Below, one piece after another: positions 28,612 through 55,064 of a stretch of 64,000 bases of DNA. Position 1 is the stretch's first letter. Each line of letters opens with the position of its first letter. Source of the DNA: Bacillota bacterium (GTDB taxonomy: Bacteria; Bacillota; UBA994; UBA5500); NCBI GenBank assembly GCA_050949085.1, contig JBMNFB010000009.1, positions 245,095 through 309,094 of the forward strand, written 5' to 3'. The notes beneath the pieces were generated by a model. It searched no databases. It was not told the DNA's origin and saw nothing but the letters and a program-made list of their open reading frames with translations. The position numbers were made by a program, and so were the translations under genes.

Positions 28612-28613
28612 GG

Positions 28614-37372: not shown

Positions 37373-38107
37373 TCAGTCGCGAATGTTCGTGATCGCAGCG
37401 GTGGCCGCGCGCACCTCCCGCGCTCCAGCCTGGAGCAAGACCCGGGCGCACTCGTCCAGTGTGCTCCCAGTAGTCAGCACATCGTCCACCAGCAGCAGAC
37501 GCTGGCCGACGATCTGCCTTTCCTGCCCGGGAGCAGCCTGAAAGGCGCCGCGCACGTTCTGACGCCGCTGCTGCTGGCCCAGCCCGGTTTGGGAAGCAAC
37601 GAACGTTCTGCGCACTAGCAACTGACGCATGGGTCGACCGGCCAGCAGCGCCAGCTGATAAGCCAGTTGCTCCGCCTGGTTAAAGCCGCGCTGTTGCAGG
37701 CGCTCGGCATGCAGCGGCACCGGCACGATGCTGTCGATCTCCTGCCACCAGGCGGCATCAATCGCCTTGTACAGCAGCTCGGCCAGAGCCCGGCTGACGT
37801 CGCGCTGACCGCGAAACTTGAGGCGATGGATGGCATGGCGCAGCTCGCCGTCATACGGCCCGATACTGCGCGCCTGAGAGAAGGCCCATGGCATATCCTG
37901 ACAGGCAGTGCACGCGTTCTCACCCTGCACTGGCCGACCGCAACGCGGGCAGATTCCACCGGCAGGATGGGAGGCGGCCGCTTGACAGGCATGACAGACC
38001 AGACCGGGTTCGGCCTCGGCCATGACCCGGCCGCAGAAGGCACACCTGCTCCGCGGTGGGAACAGGAGGTCCAGCAAGAATGAGGTCAGCTGCTTCCAGT
38101 TAGTCAC
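37373..38107 (-). CDS. comFC: ComF family protein (ComFC; double Zn-ribbon + PRTase)
   Basis: LFPP, four CxxC, VPVPLH..RGFNQ, LLVDDVLTTGST. Confidence 0.9.
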   Translation of the reverse strand: MTNWKQLTSFLLDLLFPPRSRCAFCGRVMAEAEPGLVCHACQAAASHPAGGICPRCGRPVQGENACTACQDMPWAFSQARSIGPYDGELRHAIHRLKFRGQRDVSRALAELLYKAIDAAWWQEIDSIVPVPLHAERLQQRGFNQAEQLAYQLALLAGRPMRQLLVRRTFVASQTGLGQQQRRQNVRGAFQAAPGQERQIVGQRLLLVDDVLTTGSTLDECARVLLQAGAREVRAATAAITNIRD

Positions 38108-38198
38108 CCAATCCCCTCTCCCCTGCAGAGCATCCTCTGCTAACATCCTATGCCCCGAAGCCTGGTCACCTTGCGCCGCGCAACGGAAAGTCCTGCTA

Positions 38199-39218
38199 TC
38201 ACAGAGTGTCGGCTTTCTCTACAAATGTGTAGTACTCAGCGTCGCCCAGGCGCACCCGGTACTCCCGGCCGCGCAGGCTGCCATCGATCACGCGCCGCAC
38301 CTGTTCGGCGTAAGCCTCACTGGCCGCTGCCAACTGCTGAGCGCTAGCGACGCTGACTTCTTCCCAACTGACAGTATCGCCAGGTTTTGCCTGAGCCAGA
38401 CGGCTCAGATCGGCCGACACCACCGTGCCGATCTTGGGATAGCCGCCGGTAGTCTGGCGATCGGGCCCCATGATGATCGGCTGGCCGTCGCGAGGAACCT
38501 GAATCGATCCATAGGCGATGGCGTTGGAGATAATGTCCGGTGTCAGCGGCTTGACGGCTGGCCCTGTCAGCCGCACACCCATCCGGTCGGACGCCGGCGC
38601 AATCAGATATTCGCTCTGGCGAAACAGCAGCCGCGCCTCAGCTGAGAAATGGTCAGTCTCTGGGCCGGCCACGTAGCGCAGCCTCACTTTCCCAGGCAGC
38701 TCGGGCCAGAAGGCCCGGGGCAGTCGCCGTTCGGGTGGGGTTTCCCGCAGAGACTCCACGGCGATTTCATCCCCTGCCTTGAGCTGGCGCCCCTCGTAGC
38801 CGCCGATTCCCGCCCGCAGATAGGTGGAGCGGCTGCCCATCACCGCCGCCACTTGCCAGCCTCCTGACACAGCCAGGTAGGCGCGCGCGCCGCGCCGCAG
38901 GCTGCCGATCTGCAATGTCTGGCCGGGCCGCCAGAGAAACGACTGCCAGAGCTCTACCGGCTCCCCGTCCAGCCAGCACTCTGCCTCGCCGCCGCAGACA
39001 GCAGCTTGCAGCAGGCAGGTGGTGCGCAGGGTGGGCCCGAGCAGCGTAATCTCCAACACGGCGGCTGTAGCGGCGTTGCCCACCAGCCAGTTGGCTACCC
39101 GAGCCGAGAAGCGATCAAAGACACCGGCCACCGGCACGCCAAAACGCTGATAGCCGAAACGCCCCAGATCCTGCACCGTTGTCAGCAAGCCAGGGGGTTC
39201 AATCCTCACCTTACTCAT
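38199..39218 (-). CDS. pxpC: 5-oxoprolinase subunit C (KipA/AHS2 family)
   Basis: GLLTTVQDLGRFG, GSRSTY, SDRMGVRL, DRQTTGGYPKIG. Confidence 0.92.
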   Translation of the reverse strand: MSKVRIEPPGLLTTVQDLGRFGYQRFGVPVAGVFDRFSARVANWLVGNAATAAVLEITLLGPTLRTTCLLQAAVCGGEAECWLDGEPVELWQSFLWRPGQTLQIGSLRRGARAYLAVSGGWQVAAVMGSRSTYLRAGIGGYEGRQLKAGDEIAVESLRETPPERRLPRAFWPELPGKVRLRYVAGPETDHFSAEARLLFRQSEYLIAPASDRMGVRLTGPAVKPLTPDIISNAIAYGSIQVPRDGQPIIMGPDRQTTGGYPKIGTVVSADLSRLAQAKPGDTVSWEEVSVASAQQLAAASEAYAEQVRRVIDGSLRGREYRVRLGDAEYYTFVEKADTL

Positions 39219-39951
39219 CTGACGTCACCTCTTCCTGGATCATGGGCTGATATGTACCGGCTGCCACCTGTTCGGCGATCTCGGCATACTCAGCGGCATT
39301 GATGGCGCGGAATCGCAGCAGATCGCCGGCCGCCAGCAGAAACGGCTGCGGACGGGTCGCATCGTAGAGTCTCAGCGGCGTCCGCCCGATCAGCTGCCAG
39401 CCACCGGGGCTGGCCAGGGGGTAGACACCAGTCTGCCGATCGGCGATGCCTACCGAGCCTGCCGGCACCAGCGTGCGCGGCGTGCTCAGCCGCGGCGTGG
39501 CCAGCTGCCGGGGCAGGCCACCCAGATAGGGGAAGCCAGGCAGGAAGCCCAGCATATAGACGAGATAATCGGGCTCCTTGTGCAGGGCGATAACTTCCTG
39601 CTCACTGAGTCGACAATGCTGGGCCACGGCTGCCAGATCTGGCCCCATCTCTCCCCCGTAGAGCACCGGAAGAGTGACGAGGCGCCGCTGGATCGGGCCA
39701 GTCTGCTCCAGCCTCTGGCACCGTTGTTCCAGCCAACTGGCCAGCTCCTGATAGCTGACCTGCAGCGGATTGTAATAGACCATCAGTGAGCAGTAGGTGG
39801 GAACCCATTCAATGATGGCAGGATGAGGTTCCCGGCTGATCGCCTGCTCTAGGGCTGAAACTGCCGCCTGGAGGGTCGGGTCGATCGACCGACCCAGTTC
39901 CACAAGCAGGGCGCTGTCGCCTACGGGAGCGATGCGCGGCTGGATATTCAC
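39211..39951 (-). CDS. pxpB: 5-oxoprolinase subunit B (KipI/AHS1 family)
   Basis: GDSALLV, GFLPGFPYL, PAGSVGIA, SPGGWQLIGRTP. Confidence 0.93.
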   Translation of the reverse strand: MNIQPRIAPVGDSALLVELGRSIDPTLQAAVSALEQAISREPHPAIIEWVPTYCSLMVYYNPLQVSYQELASWLEQRCQRLEQTGPIQRRLVTLPVLYGGEMGPDLAAVAQHCRLSEQEVIALHKEPDYLVYMLGFLPGFPYLGGLPRQLATPRLSTPRTLVPAGSVGIADRQTGVYPLASPGGWQLIGRTPLRLYDATRPQPFLLAAGDLLRFRAINAAEYAEIAEQVAAGTYQPMIQEEVTSDE

Positions 39952-40703
39952 AGCCCAACCACCTCGATGCCAGCCTCAGCCAGCGCCTGCCGCAGGGCCT
40001 GGAGGTGCTGGAGAGCTTCAGGGGTATCGCCGTGCACGCAGATGGTGTCGGCCCTCAGCTCCACCCATTGACCGTTGTTGGCCTGCACGCGTCCCTCTTT
40101 GATCATGCTTACCACCCGGGCAGCTACCTCGGCTGGGTCGTGCAAGACTGCTCCTGGCTCGCTGCGCGGCACCAGGGCTCCGTTGGGGAGGTAAGCTCTA
40201 TCGGCAAACACTTCACTGGCGGTGCGCAACCCCAGATCGGCAGCCTCCGTCAGGACCGGCGAATTAGCCAGGCCGACCACAACGAGGGATTCGTCAAATT
40301 CAGCGATGGCCTCGACCAGCGCCCTGGCGAGGCGGGGATCGGCCGCGGCCTGATTGTACATGGCACCATGGGCCTTGACATGGCGCAGCTGGCCGCCCAG
40401 CGCCCGGACAAAGGCAGCCAGAGCCCCCATCTGGTAGAGGACATAGTCTTTCATGTCTGCCGGGCTCAGGGCCAGGTTACGGCGCCCGAAGCCGAGCAGA
40501 TCGGGGTAGCCGGGATGGGCGCCGATACCCACGCCGTGCTGCAGGGCCAATTGCACCGACTGACGCATCACCCGCGGATCGCCGGCATGCCAGCCACAGG
40601 CGATATTGGCCGAAGAAATCAGGGGCATGATCTCCGCGTCTGGCCCCAGTCGATAGGCGCCAAAAGCCTCGCCCATATCACAATTGAGATCAACCTTAAA
40701 CAT
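39948..40703 (-). CDS. pxpA: 5-oxoprolinase subunit A (LamB/YcsF family)
   Basis: DLNCDMGE, NIACGWHAGD, GAHPGYPD, TICVHGD. Confidence 0.95.
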   Translation of the reverse strand: MFKVDLNCDMGEAFGAYRLGPDAEIMPLISSANIACGWHAGDPRVMRQSVQLALQHGVGIGAHPGYPDLLGFGRRNLALSPADMKDYVLYQMGALAAFVRALGGQLRHVKAHGAMYNQAAADPRLARALVEAIAEFDESLVVVGLANSPVLTEAADLGLRTASEVFADRAYLPNGALVPRSEPGAVLHDPAEVAARVVSMIKEGRVQANNGQWVELRADTICVHGDTPEALQHLQALRQALAEAGIEVVGL

Positions 40704-40706
40704 GCT

Positions 40707-42425
40707 TTATGCCTCCTCTTTACTCACTATAGCTGGCTGGGCTGCCAGCTGATTCAGGGCGCGAATCTTGTCAACGGCAGCCAGCATCGCCCCGCTGCGC
40801 CGTTCGGCAAAGAAACTGACCCGACCCTGCGGGTACTCAGGCAGCAGTCCGATCCGTTGGGCCAGGTCGATCAGTACGGCTTCGGTGAAGACATCGTCCC
40901 GTTCGGCGTAGAGAACCGCCAGATTCAGTCGCGGCAGCCTGATGTCCCGCTGCAGGAGCGGCGGAGTGACGAGAATCGGATATTCACCCTGGAGAAAGCG
41001 GTTGCGCTTGCTGACCAACAGATCATCAGCCTCGTGCACGAACTCCACCCACTCGGGGCTCCGCTGCCGGCTGAAATGAGACTTGAGGGCACGCCCCACC
41101 TGCTGCGCCAGCTCATCATCAGGAACGACGACCAGGATCTGAGAGAGGTCGCGCTCCATGCTCTCCTGCAGAAACTCATCCAGCCCAGCCGGTATCGGCC
41201 AGGCGAACTCCCTGACACCGCCCAGCCTGCCCAGCTGGAGCACAGGCTGGGGCAGAGGTTGCCCGTGCAGGCGGGCCGCCAGAATAACTTCGGCCATCTT
41301 CCCCCGCTGCACCTGCTGCAGCTGATCCCGCGTCGGCGTCGCTGTCAGGTAGATCAGCTTGCCGCTGGATTTCACCGCCCGCTGGGAGACCAGCTCCAGC
41401 AGCGGGTTCTGCAGATCGGGGAAGGCAGCCACCTCGTCCAGCAGGACGAGATCGAAGTCGGCGAACCGGCGCATGGCCTGACTGGGCGTGGCAATCTGCA
41501 GATCGGCCATCCGGTCGCGCGTCGTGGTCACTCGCACCTCGGGGAAGGCGGCTGCCAGCAGGGGTTGCAGCTGCAGCGCCAGATCGCGCCGCGGCCGGAT
41601 CCAGAGCGCCCTGCCACCAGCGGCCAGAGTCTGCTGCAGCGCTGGCAGGACGGCGCTATCAGCCCCCGCCCCGGCCACTGTCCAGAAGAGGCAGCTGGAC
41701 CGCTGGGGACTGACAACAAACTCCAGCAGACGCTGGCTCGCCGCGCTCTGAGCTGGCGAAAGCGGCTGGGGCAGCCGGAGCGCCACCTCCCGCCGCTCTA
41801 GCCTGCCCTGAGACGGCACCGCATAGTAGGGCGAGCAGGAGCTGGCCTGCCCCAGCTGGCGGCAGCTCTGGCAGACCCAGCTAGCCGTATCGCCACACTC
41901 CAGGCAGGGCTCCTGACGCAAATCTCTGCTACCGCAACGCAGGCAGCGCTGCACCGGATACTCGGCCACAGCCGCGCGGCAGTCTATCAGTCCCTCAAGA
42001 TAGAGATATTGCAGCAGGTCGGGCAGCGATTCCTGAAAAAACAGGCGCTGCTCCCGGACCAGCTGCTCCACTTCCTCCAGGAGGAGAATGCGCCCTTCCA
42101 GCAGTTCCAGCAGCAGCCGTGCCTCGTCCTGGGCAGAACAGACGCCAGGCTGCACCGGCTGTGGCGTGATTGCGGCTGCCTCCCCCAAACGCCGCAGTTC
42201 GCGGCGCACCACGCTCAGCTCCAGCTCGTCCCTGGGCAGCAACTGCTGCAGCAGCCGCTGCAGGTGCTCAGCGCGAGCGATGCTCAACGGCGGCGTCAGC
42301 ACCGTGATCGTGGCCTGTCTTTCCTGCCAGTAGCCGGCGTCCAACGCTGGGTTGCCCGTAACGAAATAACGCTGACGGCGGTCACCGCCCCTCAGACGAT
42401 AGACCCAGTATGATAGGCAACGCAA
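40707..42425 (-). CDS. comFA: ComFA-like SF2 helicase homologue with degenerate ATPase motifs
   Basis: Zn finger (CLRCG..CLEC..CQSC), PRRDLALQL, DEVAAFP, YLTATP, RLHGQPLPQP, DVFTEAVL; Walker A reads AGAGAD. Confidence 0.78.
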   Translation of the reverse strand: MRCLSYWVYRLRGGDRRQRYFVTGNPALDAGYWQERQATITVLTPPLSIARAEHLQRLLQQLLPRDELELSVVRRELRRLGEAAAITPQPVQPGVCSAQDEARLLLELLEGRILLLEEVEQLVREQRLFFQESLPDLLQYLYLEGLIDCRAAVAEYPVQRCLRCGSRDLRQEPCLECGDTASWVCQSCRQLGQASSCSPYYAVPSQGRLERREVALRLPQPLSPAQSAASQRLLEFVVSPQRSSCLFWTVAGAGADSAVLPALQQTLAAGGRALWIRPRRDLALQLQPLLAAAFPEVRVTTTRDRMADLQIATPSQAMRRFADFDLVLLDEVAAFPDLQNPLLELVSQRAVKSSGKLIYLTATPTRDQLQQVQRGKMAEVILAARLHGQPLPQPVLQLGRLGGVREFAWPIPAGLDEFLQESMERDLSQILVVVPDDELAQQVGRALKSHFSRQRSPEWVEFVHEADDLLVSKRNRFLQGEYPILVTPPLLQRDIRLPRLNLAVLYAERDDVFTEAVLIDLAQRIGLLPEYPQGRVSFFAERRSGAMLAAVDKIRALNQLAAQPAIVSKEEA

Positions 42426-42446
42426 TCTGTCACCTCCCGTCAAAGG

Positions 42447-44636
42447 TCAATCCAATAACTCGGCATGCCGCAAACGCCAACCCAACAGCGAGTAGCGTTC
42501 CTCAACCCGATTGTTCTTCACAGCCAGGGCCAGGGCTCGCTTCGTCCCCACGAGGACCACCAGTTTCCTGGCCCGGGTGAGGGCGGTATAGAGCATATTC
42601 CGCTGCAACATGATGTAGTGCTGGGTGGAGACAGGCATCACCACCACCGGATACTCGCTGCCCTGGCTCTTGTGCACCGTGATCGCATAGGACAGCGTCA
42701 GCTCATCCGCCTCAATCAGGTCGTAGCTGACGAGGCGCTCGCCGCTGCCATCGGGATAGAGCACGTGCAGCTCACCGGCTTCCCGGTCGATGCTGGCGAT
42801 GCGGCCGATATCGCCGTTAAACACCTGCTTCTGGTAGTTGTTGCGGATCTGCATCACCTTGTCCCCCAGGCGAAAGGTGGTAAAGCCGGCGTGCACCTCT
42901 GTCTTGCCGGGAGACGGCGGGTTGAGGGTCCGCTGCAGCTGCAGGTTGAGGTTGTCGACACCGATGACGGTGCGCCGCATCGGCGTCAGCACCTGGATAT
43001 CCTCCAGCGGATGGTAACCGTAGGCGTTGGGCAGCCGCTGCCGGCAGAGGGTAAGGACATGCTGGGCGATCTGCTCCGGATCTTCCTCATTGATATAGAA
43101 GAAGTCGTTGTCTCTGACATTCAGATAGGGAAACTCACCGCGATTAACCCGGTGGGCATTGGTGACGATCAGGCTCTGGCCGGCCTGGCGAAAGATGGTC
43201 TTCAGGCGTACCGTGGGGATGACGCCTGACTCGATGATGTCGCGCAACACGTTGCCGGGACCGACCGAGGGCAACTGATCCACATCCCCCACCAGCACCA
43301 GCTGGCAGCCGTCGGGCAGGGCGCGCAGGAAGTGATACATCAGGAGGATGTCCAGCATCGAGACCTCATCGAGGATCACGACATCAGCCTTCAGGGGATT
43401 GTCAGCGTTGCGACCAAAGGACATGCCCTGCCCGGGCGTAAAACTGTACTCCAGCAGGCGGTGAATCGTCTTGGCCTCGGCACCCGTCGTCTCGGTCATG
43501 CGTTTGGCGGCGCGCCCGGTGGGGGCCGCCAGCAGCACCGAGCGGTTACGATTGGCCAGCAGCTTGAGCAGACTGCGGATGATGGTAGTCTTGCCAGTGC
43601 CGGGGCCGCCAGTGATGACGCTGACGCCGTTCTGCAGGGCCGCGATCAGAGCCTGGCGCTGTTCCGGGGCAAGGCGAATCCGCTGCTCCTGCTGCAGCTG
43701 CCTCAGTTCCGCCTCCAGCCCCCCTGGCAATTCCAGAGCCAGACGCTGCTGATGCAGCTGGAGCAGGCGGCGCTGAACCCCCAGCTCGGCATAGAAAAAG
43801 GGAGCCAGGTAGATCATCCGCTGCTCGTCCACATCCGTCAGGAAGATCTCCTTCTGCCGCTCCAGCTCAGCGCAGGCAGGCGGCAACAGGTCGCCGGAGA
43901 CCTCCAGCATCGCCGCCGCCTGCTGATAAAACTCCGCCAGCGGATAGGACGTATGCCCGTCCTCGGCCAGTTGCTGCAGTGAATACTTGATCCCGGCGAT
44001 GAGGCGTGCCGGCGATTCAGGGTGCAGCCCCATCTGCTGCGCCAGCTTATCCGCTGTCTTGAAACCGATGCCAAAGACCTCGTCGGCCAGGCGGTAGGGG
44101 TTCTCCTCGATCACCCGGCGGGCGGTATCACCGTAGTGGCGGTAAATGCGTGCCGCCAGGCCGGGAGTGACACCATACCCCTGCAGATAGATCATCATGT
44201 CGCGAATCTCGCGATGCTCGGCAAAGGCCCTGCCGATAGCGGCCGCCTTCGCCTCACCGACTCCGGGGACCTCCACCAGGCGCTGCGGCGACTCCTCCAG
44301 GATCTGCATCGCCGCCAGGCCGAAATGCTGCACAATCTTCTTGGCGGTGGCCGGGCCCACTCCCTTGACCAGGCCCGAGCCCAGGTATTTTTCCAGACCG
44401 GCGAGCGTCGCCGGCAACACCGACTTATGAGACGCAACCTTGAACTGGCGCCCGTAATCAGGATGCAGCACCCACTCGCCCTGCATCTCCAGGGTCTCAC
44501 CCACCGCCAGTTGCGGAAAATAGCCGACGGCTGTCACCAGGTCCCTCTGGGCGGGGCTACGCAGACGCAGCACTGAATAGAAGTTTTCTTCGTTGCGATA
44601 GGTGATCCGCTCCACCGTGCCCGTCAGGTTATCCAA
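42447..44636 (-). CDS. recD2: ATP-dependent RecD2-like DNA helicase
   Basis: N-terminal GTVERITY..YLGSGLVKGVGP, NPYRL..GIGFKTAD, GGPGTGKT, DEVSM, TVHKSQGSE, YTALTRA. Confidence 0.93.
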   Translation of the reverse strand: MDNLTGTVERITYRNEENFYSVLRLRSPAQRDLVTAVGYFPQLAVGETLEMQGEWVLHPDYGRQFKVASHKSVLPATLAGLEKYLGSGLVKGVGPATAKKIVQHFGLAAMQILEESPQRLVEVPGVGEAKAAAIGRAFAEHREIRDMMIYLQGYGVTPGLAARIYRHYGDTARRVIEENPYRLADEVFGIGFKTADKLAQQMGLHPESPARLIAGIKYSLQQLAEDGHTSYPLAEFYQQAAAMLEVSGDLLPPACAELERQKEIFLTDVDEQRMIYLAPFFYAELGVQRRLLQLHQQRLALELPGGLEAELRQLQQEQRIRLAPEQRQALIAALQNGVSVITGGPGTGKTTIIRSLLKLLANRNRSVLLAAPTGRAAKRMTETTGAEAKTIHRLLEYSFTPGQGMSFGRNADNPLKADVVILDEVSMLDILLMYHFLRALPDGCQLVLVGDVDQLPSVGPGNVLRDIIESGVIPTVRLKTIFRQAGQSLIVTNAHRVNRGEFPYLNVRDNDFFYINEEDPEQIAQHVLTLCRQRLPNAYGYHPLEDIQVLTPMRRTVIGVDNLNLQLQRTLNPPSPGKTEVHAGFTTFRLGDKVMQIRNNYQKQVFNGDIGRIASIDREAGELHVLYPDGSGERLVSYDLIEADELTLSYAITVHKSQGSEYPVVVMPVSTQHYIMLQRNMLYTALTRARKLVVLVGTKRALALAVKNNRVEERYSLLGWRLRHAELLD

Positions 44637-44702
44637 GTGCGACCGCCTCCTTTCTAACTACACTGAGTCTGTTAAACGTCGCGGGGAGGAATTCCTGCTG
44701 AA

Positions 44703-44772
44703 TGGGAGGTGAGAGGTGGGATATGGGAGGTGAGAGGTGGGGTATGAGAGTTGGGGGGTGAGAAGTGAGACG
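44703..44772. repeat. Ten tandem degenerate heptamers (TG(G/A)GAGG-like)
   Basis: TGGGAGG TGAGAGG TGGGATA TGGGAGG TGAGAGG TGGGGTA TGAGAGT TGGGGGG TGAGAAG TGAGACG. Confidence 0.85.
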
Positions 44773-44912
44773 TATGAGCCATGACACGGAGAATTAGGGC
44801 AATCAGAGGCGGTAGCGGCAAGGTGTTGGCAATCGCAGGGCGCAGGTGACTATCAGAATGGTGAGACCTTAGCAGGCGCAAGACGTAGGGCGAGCGCCAC
44901 TCTATACAAGGC

Positions 44913-44940
44913 AACAAAGAAAGCACGGTTCCCCGTGCTT
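44913..44940 (-). terminator. Probable terminator of the tad operon
   Basis: AAGCACGG/CCGTGCTT stem followed by TCTTTGTT on the minus strand. Confidence 0.65.
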
Positions 44941-45034: not shown

Positions 45035-45391
45035 TCAACCCACTGCTGTCTTCAGGCCCAGATCCAGCTGGTCGCCGAGTGCGGTGCCGCTGGCGGCGAT
45101 GCTGCCGGCGGGCAACTCCAGCGCGTAGTAGGCGTCAGGATAACGCCGGCTCACCCTCCAGGGCGCCAGTTCCGGCTCCAGCCCCACCACCCGGGCTGCC
45201 TTGTCCAGAAAGATAACATCGAGGCTGAAGCGCATATGCATCATATGCACCGCCTGGCAGGGGTAGATAAGCAGCGCCTGCCCAGGCGGCAGCTCCCGCC
45301 GAAACATCAGGCCACGCAGCCGTCGCCAGAATGTGGCGGCGATTTCCGTCTGCTGGGTAAGGGCGGTCTGGCGCGTTAGATTCTGTACCAT
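45035..45391 (-). CDS. DUF192 family protein
   Basis: AATFWRRLRGLMFR, VHMMHMRFSLDVIFLD, ALELPAG; TGATG coupling to tadC. Confidence 0.88.
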   Translation of the reverse strand: MVQNLTRQTALTQQTEIAATFWRRLRGLMFRRELPPGQALLIYPCQAVHMMHMRFSLDVIFLDKAARVVGLEPELAPWRVSRRYPDAYYALELPAGSIAASGTALGDQLDLGLKTAVG

Positions 45392-47323: not shown

Positions 47324-48679
47324 TTACCTCTGCTCAAAAATCTCCGGTGGCAGCATCACGCCACTGGATTGCAGCTTCTCATAGCACTGGGGGCGAATGC
47401 CGGTAGGCCGGAACTCACCGATGATCCGCCCGCTGGGCTCCCGACCCAGCTCGTGGAAGAGAAAGATATCCTGCAGGGTGATCACGTCGCCCTCCATGCC
47501 GGTCACCTCGCAGATGTGGGTGATCTTGCGGCTGCCGTCGCGGAAGCGGCTTTGCTGCACGATGATATCGATGGCGGAGGCGATCTGCTCGCGAATCGCC
47601 CGTACCGGCAGTTCAACGCCGGCCATCAGCACCATCGTCTCCAGACGGGCCAGCATATCGCGCGGCGTGTTGGCATGGCCGGTGGTCAGTGACCCATCAT
47701 GGCCGGTGTTCATCGCCTGCAGCATGTCCAGCGCCTCGCCGCCGCGCACCTCGCCCACGACAATGCGGTTGGGCCGCATCCGCAGCGAGTTGCGCACCAG
47801 CTCCCGCATCGGGATGGCGCCCCTCCCCTCGATATTGGGGGGCCGCGTCTCCAGCGTCACGACGTGCTCCTGATGCAGCTGCAGTTCGGCAGCATCCTCG
47901 ATGGTGATGATTCGCTCGTCAGCAGGGATATAGGATGAGAGGCAGTTTAGCGTCGTTGTCTTACCAGAGCCGGTGCCGCCAGACACGACTACATTCAGCC
48001 GTCCGACGACACAGGCCTGCAGGAACCTGGCCATGGCGGCGTTGAGGGTGCCGAAGTTGATCAGATCAGCGATCTGGAAGGGGTCGCGGCTGAACTTGCG
48101 GATGGTGATCACCGGACCAGTCAGGGAGAGCGGCGGGATGATGGCGTTGACCCGCGAGCCGTCGGGCAGACGGGCATCCACCATCGGCGAGCTCTCGTCG
48201 ATGCGGCGGCCGATGGGAGCGACGATCTTGTCGATCACCTGCATCACATGCTGATTGTCGCGGAACTTGACGTCCGTCAGCTCCAGCTTGCCCTTGCGCT
48301 CCACGTAGACCTGGCCGGGACCGTTGACCATGATCTCCGACACGTCGTCCTCCCGCAGCAAGGGCGTGATGGGGCCAAAGCCCATCACCTCATCGGTCAG
48401 CTCGCTGATGATCCGCTGCCGATCGGCCGAACTGACGACAAAGCCGCTCTCGGCCATCACCCGGGCGGCGATCTCGGCGATCAACGCCTTCAGTTCATCC
48501 TCGCGCGCTGCGTCGCTCAGGAGTTCGGGCGGAACCTCGTCCACAATCGCCTGCTGGATCTGGGCCATTACCGCTTTTTTCGGTGAGGAGGAGACGATGG
48601 CGTCCTCGACGGCTGGTTTGTCCTTGCCCTTCTCGGCTGGTTTGGCCTGGCTGCCCTCCAATCGTCTTAACAGGGACAT
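47324..48679 (-). CDS. cpaF: CpaF/TadA pilus assembly ATPase
   Basis: EIMVNG, DARLPDGSRVN, GGTGSGKTT, LRMRP, AMNTGHDG. Confidence 0.95.
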   Translation of the reverse strand: MSLLRRLEGSQAKPAEKGKDKPAVEDAIVSSSPKKAVMAQIQQAIVDEVPPELLSDAAREDELKALIAEIAARVMAESGFVVSSADRQRIISELTDEVMGFGPITPLLREDDVSEIMVNGPGQVYVERKGKLELTDVKFRDNQHVMQVIDKIVAPIGRRIDESSPMVDARLPDGSRVNAIIPPLSLTGPVITIRKFSRDPFQIADLINFGTLNAAMARFLQACVVGRLNVVVSGGTGSGKTTTLNCLSSYIPADERIITIEDAAELQLHQEHVVTLETRPPNIEGRGAIPMRELVRNSLRMRPNRIVVGEVRGGEALDMLQAMNTGHDGSLTTGHANTPRDMLARLETMVLMAGVELPVRAIREQIASAIDIIVQQSRFRDGSRKITHICEVTGMEGDVITLQDIFLFHELGREPSGRIIGEFRPTGIRPQCYEKLQSSGVMLPPEIFEQR

Positions 48680-49890
48680 CAGCGTGCCCTCCTCCGACGG
48701 GCGAAGCGGCCGAGCTGTTCCGTCTTCGCGCCCTCTCCCGTCACTTCATCCAGCAGTTCACTGATCCGGTCGGCCAGTTTGGCATTGGTCTGTTCCAGCA
48801 CAAAGGGGATGCCACGGTTGACCGAGGTCATGATCGGGCCATCCTCGGCCGCCAGGTAGAAGTCCACGCTGCGCCCCATGGCCGGTTCCAGATCCCGAAA
48901 GCGAATCCCATGCTCGTAGCTGGCCTTGTTGACCAGCAGGTAGATCTTATCATCGGGATATTCCAGACGCTTCATGACCTCCAGCCCGAGCTTGACATTT
49001 TTTAACGTAGGCATATCCATCGCCCCGACCATGACTATCTTGTCGCTCATGTCCAGAGCGGTGAGCGCCGTTTCATGGAAGGAAGCCGGCAGATCGACAA
49101 TCACATAATCGAACACCTGCCGCGCCAGGTTGATGATCTTGCCGGCGTGTTCGCCGGTGACGAACTCGGCCAGCTCCGGCCGCAACGGCGCCGGCAGCAC
49201 CTTCAATCCACAGGGGTGGTTGAGCAGATAGGAAGGCAGGGTTTCCCGATCCAGAGTCGCCTCGTTGATCAGCTCGCTGATGGTGCGGCGCGGCACCAGG
49301 CTGAGCAGTACGCTGGTATCCCCAAACTGCAGATCCAGATCGATGAGGCAGGTGTTCTTCTGCCGCTCTGAGGCCAGCATGGCCGCCATATTCACGGCGA
49401 TGGTGGTCTTGCCCACCCCGCCCTTCGTGCTATAGACCGAGATCACCTTACCGGTAGCCGTGCTGAACTTGGCCGTCGGATTCTGGTTGATCTCGACTAT
49501 ACGCCGCTGCTGCTCGCGCTCCCAGGTCTTCTGGATGCAATCCACCAACTCGTCAGCGCCGAAAGGTTTCACCAGATAATCTTTGGCGCCGGCGATCATC
49601 GACTTGCGCAGGTATTCGATCTCCCCCTGCACCGAGATGACGATGACCACCGTGCCCGGTTGGCTGGAGCAGATCTGCTCGGTGGCCGAGATCCCATCCA
49701 TACCCGGCATGTTGATGTCCATCAGGACGACGTTAGGCTGCAACTCGTTCGCTTTTCGTACCGCTTCCTCACCGTCCTTAGCCTCGCCGACAACGGTAAA
49801 GCCGACGCTGAGACTGAGCAGGCGACGGATATTATCCCTGGTATCGGCTGCATCATCGGCTATCAAGACTGTGATGGGTTTGTCTGCCAA
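48679..49890 (-). CDS. cpaE: Receiver domain + CpaE/TadZ MinD-like ATPase
   Basis: REC domain (ADD, LMDINMP, LVKPF) plus KGGVGKTT and IDLDLQFGD. Confidence 0.88.
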   Translation of the reverse strand: MADKPITVLIADDAADTRDNIRRLLSLSVGFTVVGEAKDGEEAVRKANELQPNVVLMDINMPGMDGISATEQICSSQPGTVVIVISVQGEIEYLRKSMIAGAKDYLVKPFGADELVDCIQKTWEREQQRRIVEINQNPTAKFSTATGKVISVYSTKGGVGKTTIAVNMAAMLASERQKNTCLIDLDLQFGDTSVLLSLVPRRTISELINEATLDRETLPSYLLNHPCGLKVLPAPLRPELAEFVTGEHAGKIINLARQVFDYVIVDLPASFHETALTALDMSDKIVMVGAMDMPTLKNVKLGLEVMKRLEYPDDKIYLLVNKASYEHGIRFRDLEPAMGRSVDFYLAAEDGPIMTSVNRGIPFVLEQTNAKLADRISELLDEVTGEGAKTEQLGRFARRRRAR

Positions 49891-49902: not shown

Positions 49903-50610
49903 TTATTTTCCTCCGGCTACTGTCGCATTGCGCTGCCCCGGCGTGGGGACGATGTTATGATCGGTAGCCGGGCGTAAAATCAGATTGATATCACCGTAGT
50001 TCTGCGCCCAAATCACCTTCTCCGCATCGCCTGGGGTAACGGCCAGGGTCAGAGTAGAGGCCTCTGCGGGCGCCGGGCTGCCATTGCGCATTTCACTGCC
50101 GACAGCCAGCACCTTTATGTTTTGCAGCATGATTACTGAGCGATCAGTCTTGTCATCGGACGGCCACTTGCTGGAGAGGACGATGTCCACCCTATCACCC
50201 GGCCGCACCAGCTTAGCCACCGCGTTTAGCTCGCTGATGGCGATGCTCACCGCCCGCTGGCCGTTTTCCAGCTGGTAGGCCAGCCCTGATTGGCTGCCGG
50301 TGGCATAGAGGCGGCTGCTCAGCACCTGTTCGCCGGCGATGATCGATTGAGTCGTCACCTTGCCCAGGACATCGTTGAGACCGACAAAGGCCTGGGCGTG
50401 GCGCTGTCCTTTGGGCACCCGCTGGGCGGCCACCATGTCCGCAGTGATCAAGCTGCGGGCAGGGATGTTGCGCAAGGCCACGACCACTTCGTCGGTATGT
50501 TCCTGGTTGGCCATTTCCTGTAGATGCGAGAAAAACACGAAGACGCCGTAGCCAGCCACCACCGCCACCAGCAGTGCCAGCAGGATCAGACGTCGATTAG
50601 TAGCTTTCAC
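49903..50610 (-). CDS. cpaB: Flp pilus assembly protein CpaB/RcpC
   Basis: TM, SAF domain (VVVALRNIP), RAVSI, VRPGDRVD, LQNIKVLAVG. Confidence 0.9.
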   Translation of the reverse strand: MKATNRRLILLALLVAVVAGYGVFVFFSHLQEMANQEHTDEVVVALRNIPARSLITADMVAAQRVPKGQRHAQAFVGLNDVLGKVTTQSIIAGEQVLSSRLYATGSQSGLAYQLENGQRAVSIAISELNAVAKLVRPGDRVDIVLSSKWPSDDKTDRSVIMLQNIKVLAVGSEMRNGSPAPAEASTLTLAVTPGDAEKVIWAQNYGDINLILRPATDHNIVPTPGQRNATVAGGK

Positions 50611-50625: not shown

Positions 50626-51504
50626 TTAGCGTGTCAGCCTGACTACTTTGGTGCCATAGTCGTTGGCCGGGCCGACCTCACCGGACACCACGTTCTCAAT
50701 AAACTTGCCCCAGACCTCACCCCCGGCGCACCCCTCCAGGACAAAGGTGGCAAAGCCGACGACCTGCACCTCAGACCGCCCCTGTCCCAGCCGATCGATC
50801 ACCGGCACCAACACTACGCGCGCGCAATTTGTATGGGCACAGCCAGGTGTACACTGGTTGATGCGGTGGTTAACACCATCCTCCGTCGGCCCGGTCATGT
50901 TCCCCGGTTCGGTTTCCACCTGCTGGCCGATGCGCAGTACTTCGTCGAAGCCATATTTCAGCGTATGGCGATAGGGATCGGCGCCGCGGCCCGCCAGGGC
51001 CAGCGCACCGAAATTGCCTTGTTCCGAATCGTCCGGCCCCACTTTCAGCCGGTAGCTCTGGCCAAATTCAAAGTCCTGCCAGACCACACCCAGCGGTATG
51101 GCGCCCCGCACGCCGCTCAGCATTCCAGTGCCGGCCTCGCTGGCAGAATTGACGGTGGCCTCGTTCACCCCGAGCACGCGGGCCAAACCGAGACCGACAG
51201 TGCGCTCCGCCGTAACCACCACCGTCCGCTGGCCGTCCCGTTCGCGGATGGCCGCAACTGCTGTCGCCACGCCGTTGGCCGCGGCCACCTCGCGGGCAGT
51301 CTGAAGGGCGACCTCTTCGCCCAGCGATAGCGCACCGGCGCCGGCCAGCGCCGCCGCATCGCAGGCGGTCTGCAGGCGCGTCTCTTCAAGGTAGATCGTG
51401 CCGAAGTCGATCACCAAAGCGCCAAAGCCGCAGATCACAGTCATGGCCGCCAGGGTCAGCAAGCCGACTGCGCCCCTGCGGTCGCTAGAGAAGCGATTTT
51501 TCAT
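50626..51504 (-). CDS. TadG-like pseudopilin/tip protein
   Basis: RRGAV..ALVIDFG..RLQTACDAAALAGA; GNFGAL; TEPGNM. Confidence 0.82.
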   Translation of the reverse strand: MKNRFSSDRRGAVGLLTLAAMTVICGFGALVIDFGTIYLEETRLQTACDAAALAGAGALSLGEEVALQTAREVAAANGVATAVAAIRERDGQRTVVVTAERTVGLGLARVLGVNEATVNSASEAGTGMLSGVRGAIPLGVVWQDFEFGQSYRLKVGPDDSEQGNFGALALAGRGADPYRHTLKYGFDEVLRIGQQVETEPGNMTGPTEDGVNHRINQCTPGCAHTNCARVVLVPVIDRLGQGRSEVQVVGFATFVLEGCAGGEVWGKFIENVVSGEVGPANDYGTKVVRLTR

Positions 51505-51884
51505 TCTCCCCTCATCACCGCCTTTCCGACTACTGTATAGGGATTAGGTAAGAGCCGACTGATGATCGGCGTGATGATCGGTAGCTCATATTCGACCTGG
51601 ACCGTGACGTTCACCCCGGCGCCCCGCTCAGCAGAACCGGGGCTGATCTCGACGTTCAGGGCAGCCGCGTCCAGCGTAGCCGCCGCCTGCCGCACAGCCT
51701 CCTGAATTTCCGCATCAGCGGCGCCGACGATGGCCACCCGGGCGCCGGCCCGGGCAGCTGTGGTCACTGTCAGGTAGCCGTGAAAAATCCGGCCGAAATC
51801 GATGATGCCCATCAGGACCAGCAACAGCACCGGCAGGGCGACGGCCAGTTCCACCAGCGCCTGCCCCCGGCGATTCCTTCTCAT
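51501..51884 (-). CDS. tadE: TadE family pseudopilin
   Basis: RGQALVELAVALP..IIDFG..AARAGAR. Confidence 0.88.
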   Translation of the reverse strand: MRRNRRGQALVELAVALPVLLLVLMGIIDFGRIFHGYLTVTTAARAGARVAIVGAADAEIQEAVRQAAATLDAAALNVEISPGSAERGAGVNVTVQVEYELPIITPIISRLLPNPYTVVGKAVMRGE

Positions 51885-52351
51885 AGAATCCACCCCAGTT
51901 CCGCCAGGATGACGCCGATGGCGATGGCCGGCGAATAGGGGAACTTGCGCTGCATCAGGTCGGTGCGGGTGATCACGCTGACGGCGGCCAGCTGAACTTC
52001 GCGATGATAGATGAAGACAGCGACGGCCAGCGCGCCCCCGGCGGCAGCACCCAGCAGCAGGGCGCGCCAGAAAAAGTGAAACCCGCGCAACGCCCCCAGG
52101 GCCGCCAGCAGCTTGACGTCGCCGCCGCCGAATTTGCCGCTGGCGAAGAAGGGCAGCAGCACCAGCAGCCCCAGCGCAAAACCACCCAGGCTATCGCCGA
52201 GACCTGCCAGGCCATTGAGCGTCACCTGCAGCACAAGACCCAGGCCGGCCGCGCTCACGGTCAGCCAGTTGGGGATGCGGTTTTCCTTGAGATCCAGATA
52301 GACGGCAATACCCAGGAATAGATAGGTGATGGCCTGTAACATCAGGAGCAC
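51881..52351 (-). CDS. Prepilin peptidase A24 (CpaA/TadV)
   Basis: DLKENRIPN, GGGDVKL, FPYSPAI. Confidence 0.9.
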   Translation of the reverse strand: MLLMLQAITYLFLGIAVYLDLKENRIPNWLTVSAAGLGLVLQVTLNGLAGLGDSLGGFALGLLVLLPFFASGKFGGGDVKLLAALGALRGFHFFWRALLLGAAAGGALAVAVFIYHREVQLAAVSVITRTDLMQRKFPYSPAIAIGVILAELGWIL

Positions 52352-52380
52352 CCCTCCTCGTCAACAACTGCTGGTTACCA

Positions 52381-52428: not shown

Positions 52429-52437
52429 CGGTACTCC

Positions 52438-52626
52438 TTACGGACCGGCAGGATCGGGAACCTCGTCCAATCCACCCTCTACCTTACCAAAGATCTCCGC
52501 AATCTTATCTCTTAGGGCTACTAGAGTAACAATCAGTCCCACCGCGATCAGTCCAATAATCAGTCCATACTCGGTCATCGCCTGGCCAGACTCGTCCTCC
52601 CAAAGGCGTAGGAACATTTCCTTCAC
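52438..52626 (-). CDS. flp: Flp family type IVb pilin
   Basis: EDESG|QAMTEYGLII Flp motif; GGAGGT RBS before GTG. Confidence 0.93.
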   Translation of the reverse strand: MKEMFLRLWEDESGQAMTEYGLIIGLIAVGLIVTLVALRDKIAEIFGKVEGGLDEVPDPAGP

Positions 52627-52765
52627 TATTGTCACCTCCCTCGAATTGGTATGTCTTAATATGTTCGCTCGGCTGTCTTAATTGTAGGAGAAATAGAAAT
52701 CTGGCGCATGCTGCGCCAGACTCAAAGTGGGACGAGCCCATCGGACCATTTTCGACTATTTTTGA

Positions 52766-53206
52766 CTAGGACTTTAGTCCCTGAGCCAGTTGGGACCGTT
52801 CGATGAGGAGCCTACCCAGCAGCTCCACCGCCTGCAGCGGGGTCAGCCGCCGCGTGAGATCCAGCACCCAGGTGACCTGCCCGCTGGCCCGATCACAGAC
52901 GGCGTGGGTGGCGTCCGTGCCAGTCATCCAGTGTAACAGCGGATATGTATCCTGCAGGCGCTGGATAAGGGGGGCGAGGGACCCGCCGTCGTCATTGGAG
53001 ACAACCCAGACGTCGCTGAGGGAGAGATGCTCCGCCTCCCGAAACAGCCGCCAGACCAGCTGCAGCAGGGGATCGAGGAACTCCTCGCCATGCTCCACCT
53101 GCAGCACCAGGCTGACAGCGATGCTCTGCCGTTTTCCGGCTATGTATAATGACCAGGCCGCCCAGATGCCAAGCAGGGCGATGCCGACGAGAAACAGGCC
53201 AGCCAT
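52766..53206 (-). CDS. Hypothetical single-TM protein
   Basis: N-terminal TM; GAGGTG RBS; directly after degU. Confidence 0.7.
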   Translation of the reverse strand: MAGLFLVGIALLGIWAAWSLYIAGKRQSIAVSLVLQVEHGEEFLDPLLQLVWRLFREAEHLSLSDVWVVSNDDGGSLAPLIQRLQDTYPLLHWMTGTDATHAVCDRASGQVTWVLDLTRRLTPLQAVELLGRLLIERSQLAQGLKS

Positions 53207-53263
53207 AGCACCACCTCGATCTTTCCTGGAGTGCTACAGCATATGCAGCCAGCGAGGCGAGTG

Positions 53264-53923
53264 TTAAGGCAGCTGCACCAGCTTCAGCTTCAGGGCCTGC
53301 ACCACTGCCTGGGTGCGGTCGCTGACCTCCAGCTTGCGCAGGATGTTGCTGACGTGGTTCTTGACAGTCTTCTCGCTGATATACAGCTTCTCGGAGATGT
53401 CGCGATTGCTGCAGCCCTGCACCATCAGATCCAGCACCTCCTGCTCACGCTCGCTGAGCAACTGGGCGCCGTTTCCGGCGGCGAGGGGCTGCCCCTGGGA
53501 AAGGCGGCTGAACTCATGGATCAGCTTGTTCGTCATCTCCGGCTGCACCACCGAACCGCCGTTGACGATGATGCGGATGGCGTCCACCAGCCGATCCGGC
53601 TCGACATCCTTCAGCAGGTAGCCGGCGGCGCCGGCCTTCAATACTTCGAAAAGGTACTCTTCATCATCGTAGATGGTCAGGATCAGGATCGCCACCCAGG
53701 GAAACTGGGACTTCATCAGCTTAGTGGCTTCGACACCGTTGCAGACCGGCATGTTCAGATCCATAATCACCAGATCGGGGTTCAGCTCCGGCAGACAGGC
53801 ACAGGCCACCTCGCCATTGCAGGCTTCGCCCACCACTTCCAGATCGGGCTCCATCTCCAGGATGCGACGCAACCCCTGACGAAACAGGGTATGATCGTCC
53901 ACCAGCAACAGCTTAGTTGACAT
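53264..53923 (-). CDS. degU: NarL-family response regulator, DegU-like
   Basis: VDDHTLFRQGLRRIL, MDLNMP, LuxR HTH (ISEKTVKNHVSNILRKL); overlaps degS. Confidence 0.85.
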   Translation of the reverse strand: MSTKLLLVDDHTLFRQGLRRILEMEPDLEVVGEACNGEVACACLPELNPDLVIMDLNMPVCNGVEATKLMKSQFPWVAILILTIYDDEEYLFEVLKAGAAGYLLKDVEPDRLVDAIRIIVNGGSVVQPEMTNKLIHEFSRLSQGQPLAAGNGAQLLSEREQEVLDLMVQGCSNRDISEKLYISEKTVKNHVSNILRKLEVSDRTQAVVQALKLKLVQLP

Positions 53924-55064
53924 CTGCTGATTCCCCCCTTGTCGGTACCTGGACACGGATCCTGGTGCCTTCACCCGGAGCCGAGTCCAGTTCCCATACT
54001 CCCTGCAACAGTTCCACCCGCTCCCGCATGCTGAGCAGGCCGTAGTGATCGCCCACCCTGCCCAGGGCCTCATCAACGGCGAACCCTACTCCATCGTCCT
54101 GTACCAGCACCTTCAGCGTATCGGGGCTAAACTCGACCCGCACCAGCACATTCTGCGCCTTGGCGTGTTTGATGATATTGTTCAAAGCCTCCTGCACGAT
54201 GCGGAAGATACCAACCTCCACATGGGAGGGCAGGCGCTCCTCCTTACCCGCCACCGAGAAGTCGATCAGGAAGCCGTGCTGATCCTTCATATCGTTGATA
54301 TAGCGCCGCAGCGTGGGCACCAGCCCCAGATCGTCCAGAGTCATCGGCCGCAGGTCGTGGATCACCTTGCGGATATCCTGCAGGCTGCGGCGCACCACAT
54401 CCTTCAGCTGGCGTAACTCCGCCCGCACCTGCTCGATATCGCTATCCAGCAGCTTCTCGCAGATCTCCGCCCGCAAGACGACGTTAGCCAGCGTCTGGGC
54501 CGGACCATCGTGGATATCCCGCGCCACGCGCTGCCGCTCTTCCTCCTGCGCCTTGATGACTCGCATGCCCAGGAGGTGACGCTGTTGAATGCTGTCCAGC
54601 TGGCCGGTCAGCTCGCGCAGGTTGCCCTGCATGTATTGGGTAGCAACGTTGATCTGACTGATCAGTTCCTCGGCCTTGCGGCTGGTGTTCTGCAGGTTTT
54701 CCAGCGTGAGTTCGACCTCATCCCACTGCGCCCGCAGCTTGGCCTCGCGCTCCCGCAGGACGACCAGATCCAGCTGCGTCGTCTGGGCCATCTCATAGGC
54801 CTGCTTGATGTCTTCCTCTGAATAACGGTCGAAGTCGCGGCTGACCTCCATCAGCCGCAACCGATCCATCCGATATAGGCCTTCCTTTTCATCCACCTGG
54901 CCGATGACCGCTTTGGTCTGCGCTTTGATATCCAGGGCCTGCATCTCAACCCGAGCATACTCAGCTCGAGCCATTTCCGAGATCTCGAAAATCTGGCTCT
55001 TGCTTTTCTCGATCATCATGACCGTATCGTTGATGATTTTGTCCAGCAATTTGCCGTCAACCAT
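53913..55064 (-). CDS. degS: Cytoplasmic sensor histidine kinase DegS
   Basis: DegS sensor coiled coil (RLMEVSRDFDRYSEEDIKQAYE), ARDIHDGPAQ, QEALNN, DDGVGF. Confidence 0.9.
   Translation of the reverse strand: MVDGKLLDKIINDTVMMIEKSKSQIFEISEMARAEYARVEMQALDIKAQTKAVIGQVDEKEGLYRMDRLRLMEVSRDFDRYSEEDIKQAYEMAQTTQLDLVVLREREAKLRAQWDEVELTLENLQNTSRKAEELISQINVATQYMQGNLRELTGQLDSIQQRHLLGMRVIKAQEEERQRVARDIHDGPAQTLANVVLRAEICEKLLDSDIEQVRAELRQLKDVVRRSLQDIRKVIHDLRPMTLDDLGLVPTLRRYINDMKDQHGFLIDFSVAGKEERLPSHVEVGIFRIVQEALNNIIKHAKAQNVLVRVEFSPDTLKVLVQDDGVGFAVDEALGRVGDHYGLLSMRERVELLQGVWELDSAPGEGTRIRVQVPTRGESADVN

Follow-up and report, generated by a model that had tools for sequence, protein, structure and literature searches.

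The window analysed here is a 64,000-nt stretch of contig JBMNFB010000009.1 from a Bacillota bacterium of the UBA5500 lineage. Between positions 37373 and 55064 it carries genes for a DegS/DegU-type two-component system, a Tad/Flp pilus, the helicase RecD2, a ComFA-like protein and ComFC. Does this order describe one DNA-uptake machine, or two modules that share a neighbourhood? An earlier note on this DNA leaned toward the first answer, in which a Tad pilus captures DNA for a remodelled ComF complex under DegU control; that interpretation is partly supported. We conclude, with a probability of roughly 60%, that the block is this genome's version of a deep-rooted Bacillota neighbourhood, inherited vertically, in which two functional modules are adjacent by descent. 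The first would consist of degS-degU, a small open reading frame (ORF) and the genes from flp to DUF192, that is, a secretin-less monoderm Tad/Flp pilus with its likely cognate DegS-DegU, and the receiver domain of CpaE may add a second phosphorylation input. The second, the recD2-comFA-pxpABC-comFC operon, would form the cytoplasmic end of a DNA-uptake route, where a ComFA that lacks its ATPase motifs most likely persists as a non-catalytic partner of ComEC and ComFC.

Window ORFs from all six frames were assigned to families by Pfam and NCBIfam scans. The 19 genes named in the earlier note were all recovered on the minus strand and in the order it gave. The features of the block are as follows.

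53913-55064, minus strand: degS; PF05384 DegS (1.2e-48, 165.1 bits, cut-off 27.6) with HisKA_3 and HATPase_c
About 53264-53923, minus strand: degU, NarL/LuxR-type; Response_reg (4.1e-29) and GerE (9.1e-22)
52766-53206, minus strand: small membrane ORF (146 aa) located after degU and before flp; its fold signature is GT-A-like but degenerate
52697-52723, minus strand: terminator-like hairpin after the small ORF and before flp; 12 pairs, of which 6 are G-C, a consensus match only
52438-52635, minus strand: flp, Flp-type major pilin; PF04964 (1.6e-8, 34.7 bits, cut-off 32.2)
51881-52351, minus strand: cpaA/tadV, prepilin peptidase; Peptidase_A24 (6.1e-17)
51501-51893, minus strand: tadE, minor pilin; the tadE/tadG-like pair matches PF07811 (1.4e-16) and PF13400 (4.6e-11)
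50626-51504, minus strand: tadG-like minor pilin gene, in the tadE/tadG-like pair at 50626-51893
49903-50610, minus strand: cpaB/rcpC; TIGR03177 (172.5 bits, cut-off 71)
48679-49890, minus strand: cpaE/tadZ-like ParA/MinD ATPase; Response_reg (9.8e-30) and AAA_31
47324-48679, minus strand: cpaF/tadA pilus ATPase; T2SSE (1.5e-65, 221.7 bits), TIGR03819 (348 bits, just below the cut-off of 373)
46325-47278, minus strand: tadB, platform protein; tadB and tadC match T2SSF (9.6e-21 and 1.4e-20)
45391-46308, minus strand: tadC, platform protein; T2SSF
45035-45394, minus strand: DUF192; PF02643 (1.3e-22)
44921-44940, minus strand: terminator-like hairpin at the module boundary; 8 pairs, 5 of them G-C, with a weak T tail TCTTTGTT
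42447-44636, minus strand: recD2, SF1B (superfamily 1B) helicase with intact motifs; TIGR01448 (900 bits, cut-off 500)
40707-42443, minus strand: ComFA-like predicted pseudo-ATPase; N-terminal domain and four-cysteine finger kept, helicase motifs I, V and VI lost together with part of II
38199-40703, minus strand: pxpA-pxpB-pxpC, 5-oxoprolinase; NF003814, TIGR00370 and TIGR00724, all above their cut-offs
37373-38146, minus strand: comFC; DZR_2 (46.9 bits) and Pribosyltran (39.2 bits)

The neighbourhood recurs far beyond the window genome. Around 80 comFA loci of named Bacillota, taken from among the matches listed (26-36% identity) and probed by tblastn with the window proteins, tadG-cpaB-cpaE-cpaF-tadB-tadC-DUF192 lies directly upstream of comFA-comFC and in the same direction in 11, one of which (L091) also has degU upstream. 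These 11 loci are labelled Syntrophomonadaceae, Thermacetogeniaceae, Thermoanaerobacteraceae, HGW-Firmicutes, an Aneurinibacillus-labelled metagenome-assembled genome (MAG) and two improbably labelled MAGs, and among them are loci of the isolates Tepidibacillus infernus and Vulcanibacillus modesticaldus. The order in these two isolates is tad-DUF192-GGDEF-DegV-comFA-comFC (L071, L084), as seen in the fetched part, which stops short of the upstream region. Across the 80 loci, recD2 adjoins comFA in 9, degS is upstream in 39 and degU in 48, and comFA and comFC are adjacent in 64.

Among 301 genomes sampled evenly across the phylum, CpaF (E <= 1e-60) is present in 164 and ComFA (E <= 1e-30) in 139. 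The two proteins occur together in 90 genomes; 74 have CpaF alone, 49 have ComFA alone and 88 have neither, which gives an odds ratio of 2.2, uncorrected for relatedness. At least 25 of these 90 genomes, including that of the window and spanning 12 families, have cpaF and comFA on the same contig and strand, 2.4-7.6 kb apart. The 24 other linked loci (11 other families; at least four contigs shared with the 80-locus set) were fetched, and each runs from cpaA or tadE through DUF192 to comFA in one direction, with comFC next in 23. Upstream of tad there is degS in 21 of the 24 and degS, degU or both in 23; the remaining contig, of 5.9 kb, is too short. The distance from DUF192 to comFA is 0.1-5 kb in the linked genomes. 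Whether tad stays beside comF in relatives had been raised as a check on the original proposal, and the linkage turned out to be stronger than expected. The accompanying caveat, that the genes might be an insertion into a conserved backbone, had the direction wrong, as the Tad cluster is itself part of the backbone. Because the whole order recurs across 12 families, the adjacency is ancient and not a local insertion.

Some parts of the block are peculiar to the window's own family. None of the 24 linked loci contains recD2. In all five family loci (L031, L033-L036) comFA and comFC are separated by pxpABC, an arrangement seen in none of the 80 other comFA loci; the addition of recD2 and the insertion of pxpABC would thus be family-specific events. 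A remodelled ComF complex is therefore not a property of the block as a whole, since 22 of the 24 linked ComFAs also keep the Walker A Lys. For the same reason, an inactivated ComFA was rejected as a hallmark of the tad-linked ComF genes (21 of these 22 have the full GxGKT).

Within the family, genus g2 (G005, G007) has the order tad-DUF192-recD2-comFA-pxpABC-comFC. In G007 the DUF192-recD2 junction is interrupted by an insertion sequence (IS) with a DDE transposase (L031:11190-12689), and degSU lies inverted at a distance of about 3 kb; therefore, this junction tolerates disruption. Genera g3 and g4 (G002, G003) have degS-degU-small ORF-recD2-comFA-pxpABC-comFC and no tad genes. Searches of G002, G003 and G009 (100, 98 and 94% complete) gave no CpaF ortholog, the best matches (31-34%) being PilB and PilT. 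In the RecD2 tree, the tad-less G002 and G003 are separated from the tad-bearing G000, G001, G005 and G007 as distinct clades (support 96/95). The small ORF retained beside degU in the tad-less genera and the ORF located just before flp elsewhere are homologues, and loss of the segment from flp to DUF192 by deletion is accordingly the best explanation of the tad-less state. The tad-less orders degSU-orf-recD2-comF of the sister genera and degSU-DegV-comF of Geobacillus-type Bacilli both look like deletion derivatives.

The hairpins on either side of flp to DUF192 and the absence of the cluster from the sister genera could also indicate a mobile island acquired recently and inserted, by chance, at the degU-recD2 boundary, and Tad systems are frequently transferred horizontally, according to the available part of Denise et al. 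2019 (PMC6668835). However, insertion point and order do not vary among the 24 linked loci (11 other families), and family f2, which belongs to the same class, has them too. The G+C content of the block is 0.60-0.65 throughout without a break, and the Pfam and NCBIfam scans found no integrase or transposase in it. The first ORF of the module is kept in the tad-less genera, and the tad-bearing genera form a clade. We regard a recent island as extremely improbable.

The two parts of the block also occur apart. Family f2, which has the CpaF closest to that of the window, has degS-degU-flp..DUF192 in all three loci, with no comFA or nearby comFC. No ComFA was detected at E <= 1e-30 in the same-class families f2 (0/4) and f3 (0/2); ComEC and ComFC-like genes are present in all four f2 genomes, located elsewhere. 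Four complete genomes have tad and comF far apart, and in these degSU adjoins a tad cluster in two and, within the fetched range, lies upstream of comFA in none. Unlinked tad and comF, which the earlier note had held to be damaging to its proposal, are thus found in the sister genera and sister families, while the linkage is widely kept elsewhere.

The junction between DUF192 and comFA is variable. It may contain nothing (about 80-330 bp between matches), recD2 in the window family, DUF362 and a sigma factor in two loci, or two GGDEF cyclases (MASE9-GAF-GGDEF and GGDEF alone) in L143, L147, L149 and L156. The cyclases suggest control of the Tad pilus by cyclic di-GMP (c-di-GMP). The genes hpf, secA and prfB also lie beside comF and are unrelated to competence, so the order here may likewise be kept by inertia. 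Taken as a whole, the comparison favours two neighbouring modules over one machine.

The alternative is a single unit, DegSU-Tad-DUF192-ComFA-ComFC, in which the Tad pilus feeds DNA to ComEA, ComEC and ComF under DegU control and the gene order is selected for co-expression. Several observations argue for this alternative and weigh against two modules joined by descent. The same order and direction in 12 families and in named Bacilli, with linkage in at least 25 of 90 genomes, is far above chance after ComFA has diverged to 25-36% identity. The count of 25, matched by hand, is a lower bound, and many of the genomes scored as unlinked have the two genes on different contigs of fragmented assemblies. 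In L150, L154, L159, L160, L161 and L163 the gap between DUF192 and comFA is about 80-330 bp, which would allow co-transcription and a real functional tie. CpaF and ComFA co-occur above expectation, with the odds ratio given above and its lack of correction for relatedness. Tad-dependent transformation is known in Micrococcus luteus (PMC4322843), and Tad pili are linked to DNA uptake in Liberibacter crescens (PMC8513845), as far as the accessible parts of these papers indicate. One linked genome (G098) has CpaF-type ATPases only, with no PilB found. Two further points weigh against the reading of two modules: regulation of tad by DegSU is suggested by linkage alone, and selection on the altered ComFA is argued solely from its open frame and conserved N-terminus.

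On the other side, a PilB-type ATPase with a neighbouring PilT is encoded in the window genome and in 9 of the 10 linked genomes checked (the exception being G098). Of the CpaF-positive genomes, 74 of 164 have no ComFA, and 49 of 139 ComFA-positive genomes have no CpaF. Three genomes (G002, G003 and G009) have retained comF but not tad. Unrelated genes and, in one case, an IS are found at the junction, where the GGDEF cyclases point to c-di-GMP and adhesion control; degSU goes with tad and not with comF when the two are separated, and a terminator-like hairpin lies between them in the window. A single uptake unit is therefore unlikely in our judgement. A more elaborate form of it, which we consider quite improbable, is an ancestral supermodule in which Tad is or was the DegU-controlled uptake pilus of ComF. 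The degSU-comF adjacency of Bacillus would then be a scar left by deletion of tad and takeover by ComG, and in the window RecD2, co-transcribed and of 5'-3' polarity, would replace the motor and ComFA would serve as an adaptor to ComFC and ComEC.

Returning to the reading of two modules, the first one has the features of a Tad/Flp (type IVc) system, with Flp, CpaF, TadB and TadC, an A24 peptidase, TadE/TadG, CpaB and CpaE. The Flp processing site is of the G/XXXXEY type (ESG/QAMTEYGLIIGL). The earlier note reported no rcpA secretin, and this extends to the whole genome (2.28 Mb, 12 contigs, 98.8% complete), in which PF00263 has no match. A secretin is not expected, because the host is a monoderm spore former with SpoIIP, Gpr and YpeB, and its absence does not exclude membership in the monoderm Tad subtype. 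The window CpaF is 60-67% identical to those of the 24 linked genomes and 70-75% identical to those of family f2. DUF192 is the last gene of the cluster, after tadC, in all 24 linked loci, all three ComFA-less loci and all five unlinked clusters; the accessible portions of the literature on DUF192 (COG1430) suggest no link to pili. The Tad pilus would be under the control of DegSU and would serve in adhesion or surface sensing.

The start codon of degS is an ATG at 55064 preceded by a purine-rich stretch, and degU probably starts at MSTKLLLVDDH. A DegS-type soluble kinase adjoins a regulator with receiver (REC) and GerE domains, as in a DegS-DegU two-component system. No NCBIfam equivalog scored above its cut-off for either protein, so orthology with DegSU of Bacillus subtilis is based on domain content and position. 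The small ORF at 52766-53206 has no Pfam or NCBIfam match, and it matches (E 1.3e-6, residues 3-134) a profile of eight ORFs that occupy the equivalent place in other families. The receiver domain of CpaE is canonical, with a DD pair, D58 in LMDINMPGMDG and the Lys of VKPF, and kinases such as DegS may act on it directly. The REC-CpaE fusion is kept in other loci, where the degU queries give tblastn matches on cpaE. An Rfam scan of the whole window found a single element, the S-adenosylmethionine (SAM) riboswitch before metK, and no c-di-GMP riboswitch before flp.

DUF192 and recD2 are separated by a spacer of 398 nt containing the hairpin at 44940-44921. At the end of the spacer recD2 has its own GAAAGGAGG, followed by a TTG start. 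The earlier note placed a probable terminator at about 44913-44940 between tad and recD2; an 8-pair hairpin on the minus strand is indeed found there. However, the hairpin scan returned 15 sites against 10.3 expected from shuffled sequences, and the hairpin alone is therefore weak evidence for a boundary. The protein has the OB_YrrC, HHH_RecD2, AAA_19, SH3_13 and UvrD_C_2 domains expected of RecD2, a helicase of 5'-3' polarity, and is 74-76% identical to its relatives in the family. The spacer also contains cccacctctcacctcccat, a short direct repeat present in two copies at 44690-44760 on the minus strand. The repeat lies inside orf84 (44672-44926), an ORF that was rejected as a gene and treated as non-coding, since it has no family match and no conservation.

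The ComFA-like protein was called ATPase-dead in the earlier note, and the alignment bears this out. All 11 aligned relatives (29-52% identity) have GAGKTE, ATTHQ, DExDAFP, TATP, VTTT..ERG.T and Q.AGR.GR. The window protein has GAGADS in place of GAGKTE, DEVAAF in place of DEVDAF, ATPSQ in place of ATTHQ, VTPPLLQRDIR in place of VTTTLLERGIT and DLAQRIGL in place of QIAGRAGR. The Walker A Lys and Thr, the second Asp of DExD, motif V and both Arg residues of motif VI are thereby replaced, while motif III (TATP) is kept. Of the 104 positions at which the other 11 proteins all agree, 20 are changed in the window protein, and these changes are concentrated in motifs I, Ic, II, V and VI; counted in the same leave-one-out manner, the three distant relatives differ at 6-9 positions and the eight closest at 0-2. 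In the maximum-likelihood tree, the terminal branch of the window ComFA is 0.97 changes per site, compared with 0.08-0.37 in the relatives. RecD2 is clock-like, with a root-to-tip length of 0.28 versus 0.26-0.28 in the sister genus.

The homology to ComFA extends over the full length (E 1e-141 to 1e-173 to P0003-P0018, of which P0003 and P0018 are named ComFA by a source), with about 47-54% identity to family-level relatives and 26-32% to Tepidibacillus, Paenibacillus and one other. The cysteines C167, C170, C180, C183, C191, C194 and C203, which include the four-cysteine zinc finger, are invariant. By its sequence, the protein is a ComFA homologue and not a functional ATPase member of the family. 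In B. subtilis, mutation of Walker A or Walker B of ComFA strongly lowers transformation, and ComFA moves 5'-3' on single-stranded DNA (the available part of bioRxiv 10.1101/2021.10.29.466550). Given the lost motifs and these mutant data, the window ComFA should not be an ATP-driven translocase; it is predicted to be unable to bind or hydrolyse ATP, and hence not to be the import motor.

An assembly error does not account for these changes. The frame is open over 578 codons (1.7 kb) without a stop or frameshift. Two independent DNA runs, made in other studies, also yield contigs that span the gene, and these show no indels. Comparison of four sequencing runs gave two single-base differences in comFA in all, the strains being about 99.9% identical. 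The motif loss is therefore real and not an artefact, as independent runs reproduce the gene. A metagenome scan for close relatives of the altered ComFA produced 152 pattern matches, none of which encodes a relative. Searches of the genome with the window protein and with a profile of 12 ComFAs found no second or canonical ComFA; the other matches are unrelated superfamily 2 (SF2) helicases.

These features could also mean that competence is decaying: comFA would be a dying gene whose frame is open by chance, DNA import by the ComF route would have been lost, and tad would be irrelevant to it. All nucleotide-binding motifs are lost on a long branch, ComFA is missing from the other same-class families (f2 and f3), and similar erosion is seen in two tad-linked ComFAs (L150 and L154). 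However, a 1.7-kb frame has stayed free of stops and frameshifts despite about one amino-acid change per site on the branch, and no indels appear in the independent runs. ComFA retains its four zinc-finger cysteines, N-terminal domain and motif III, and ComFC, ComEC, ComEA and DprA look intact. In addition, comFA is embedded in a tight operon, in which the genes from recD2 through comFA, pxpA and pxpB to pxpC are spaced by -8 to +3 nt (gaps or overlaps of 3-8 nt). Decay is thus a doubtful possibility, although one to be taken seriously. Because the frame, the N-terminal domain and the zinc finger are kept, persistence as a non-catalytic partner is most likely, and the protein does not appear to be a neutrally decaying pseudogene. 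This agrees with the sister families, where a ComEC/ComFC route would work, or at least exist, without ComFA.

The altered ComFA of the window appears to be lineage-specific. The ComFAs of L150 (G128; 13407-15266) and L154 (G314; 2990-4975) have GAGRP or GAARP at Walker A, an altered motif V and GR.GWS at motif VI. They share changes that differ from those of the window, and therefore represent a second origin of a ComFA pseudo-ATPase. Open-frame ComFA pseudo-ATPases thus arose at least twice, which bears on whether ComFA is a motor only or also a structural part of a ComEC-ComFA-ComFC assembly. A prediction of the ComFA-ComFC complex gave a score of 0.00 in both runs, which were made with no controls and weigh neither for nor against binding. 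In metatranscriptome X20, eight short contigs fall on recD2, cpaE/cpaF and flp and none on comFA; carry-over of DNA is possible, and this is not proof that comFA is silent. Run X19 is probably DNA.

The other components of an uptake route appear to be in place. The motifs of ComFC are intact relative to its relatives (the cysteines, PVPLH..RGFNQAE and the LLLVDDVLTTGST loop), and its 8 cysteines together with D221, D222, T225, T226, G227 and T229 of the DDxxTTGxT loop are invariant in 24 sequences; its TIGR00201 score is 127 bits, below the cut-off of 233.55. The gene lies 2.6 kb downstream of comFA in the same tight gene string, with pxpABC in between. PxpA, PxpB and PxpC score 376.8 bits for NF003814 (cut-off 226), 236.8 for TIGR00370 (145.55) and 305.6 for TIGR00724 (230.2), and the PxpC equivalog NF045499 scores 238.9 bits, below its cut-off of 500. 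In G002, pxpB and pxpC read as a single 593-aa ORF.

Contrary to the possibility, considered in the earlier note, that comEC or dprA might be missing, the genome encodes a single full-length ComEC of 763 aa (DUF4131, Competence and Lactamase_B), a ComEA-type HHH_3 ORF of 181 aa near comEC, and DprA. That note also regarded a full type IVa pilus set together with a canonical ComFA elsewhere as evidence against the role of Tad. The first part is borne out: a type IVa cluster elsewhere in the genome comprises PilB (553 aa, with MshEN), PilT, PilC, N-methyl pilins, PilM, PilN and a PilX-like protein. This inventory covers the type IVa cluster, a ComG-type operon not having been searched by name. 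The second part is not, since the window ComFA has no canonical counterpart in the genome. The type IVa pilus with PilT would be the conventional candidate for DNA capture, if the organism is transformable at all.

The block resembles several known systems in part. In B. subtilis, degS-degU lies upstream of comFA-comFB-comFC, with hpf, secA and prfB downstream of comF. The window likewise has a DegS/DegU-type pair upstream of and co-directional with comFA and comFC, and hpf-secA-prfB downstream. It differs in having about 8 kb of Tad genes and recD2 between degU and comFA, pxpABC in place of comFB and a ComFA without ATPase motifs. A Geobacillus locus (L118) has the order degS-degU-DegV-...-comFA-comFC.

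According to the accessible text on the monoderm Tad system of M. luteus (PMC4322843), the window shares with it a Flp of the G/XXXXEY type, TadA/CpaF, TadB, TadC, TadE/G-like proteins and the lack of a secretin. M. luteus has tadA-B-C-flp-tadE/F-tadG at two loci, whereas the window has a single locus with CpaB, REC-CpaE, DUF192 and DegSU. As for the ComFA motor of Firmicutes such as Streptococcus pneumoniae and B. subtilis, the parts available of bioRxiv 10.1101/2021.10.29.466550 and PMC12663950 indicate that the window protein shares the full-length homology, the four-cysteine finger, motif III and the linkage to comFC. Unlike in that motor, Walker A, DExD, motif V and motif VI residues are replaced. 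Diderms take up DNA through ComEC and ComFC without ComFA (PMC9005727, available part), and Neisseria gonorrhoeae lacks ComFA (bioRxiv 10.1101/2021.10.29.466550, available part). The same-class sister families without ComFA resemble this route, and the window genome would be functionally close to it. The window differs from it in keeping a full-length non-catalytic ComFA with an intact RecD2 immediately upstream.

All components of the block are known kinds of genes; the conserved DegSU-Tad-comFA-comFC arrangement and ComFA pseudo-ATPases were not found described. A search of the full-text literature, most subscription journals lying outside its scope, gave no description of a tad-comF or degSU-tad neighbourhood, and the text of Denise et al. 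2019 (PMC6668835) and of Angelov et al. 2015 (PMC4322843) does not mention comF. The arrangement offers an evolutionary explanation for the long-known adjacency of degSU and comF in Bacillus and nominates DegSU as a regulator of the Tad pilus. Cultured carriers such as Tepidibacillus and Vulcanibacillus now make it possible to ask which filament transformation depends on in Clostridia-like Firmicutes.

The flanks of the block consist of housekeeping genes. Upstream of degS, metK (55359-56558) is preceded by a SAM riboswitch (RF00162, 92.5 bits, 56653-56754, minus strand), and a strong terminator at 55336-55304 ends metK. Downstream of comFC, positions 30782-36901 on the minus strand hold hpf (36374-36901), a 441-aa ORF without a Pfam match (34876-36201), secA and prfB. 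The order hpf-secA-prfB is that of B. subtilis, without the flagellar genes that intervene there, and these flanks would fit a frozen synteny. Further downstream of prfB lies a polysaccharide (cell-wall) cluster (22482-30205, minus strand) with a WecG/TagA-type transferase, a pyruvyl transferase, DUF5693, two GT4-type proteins, a Wzy_C ligase-like protein and DUF4330. Metagenomes of bioreactors and anaerobic digesters commonly contain the organism: 20 runs from 18 studies contain some part of the window stretch, and 18 runs contain at least half of the sampled words.

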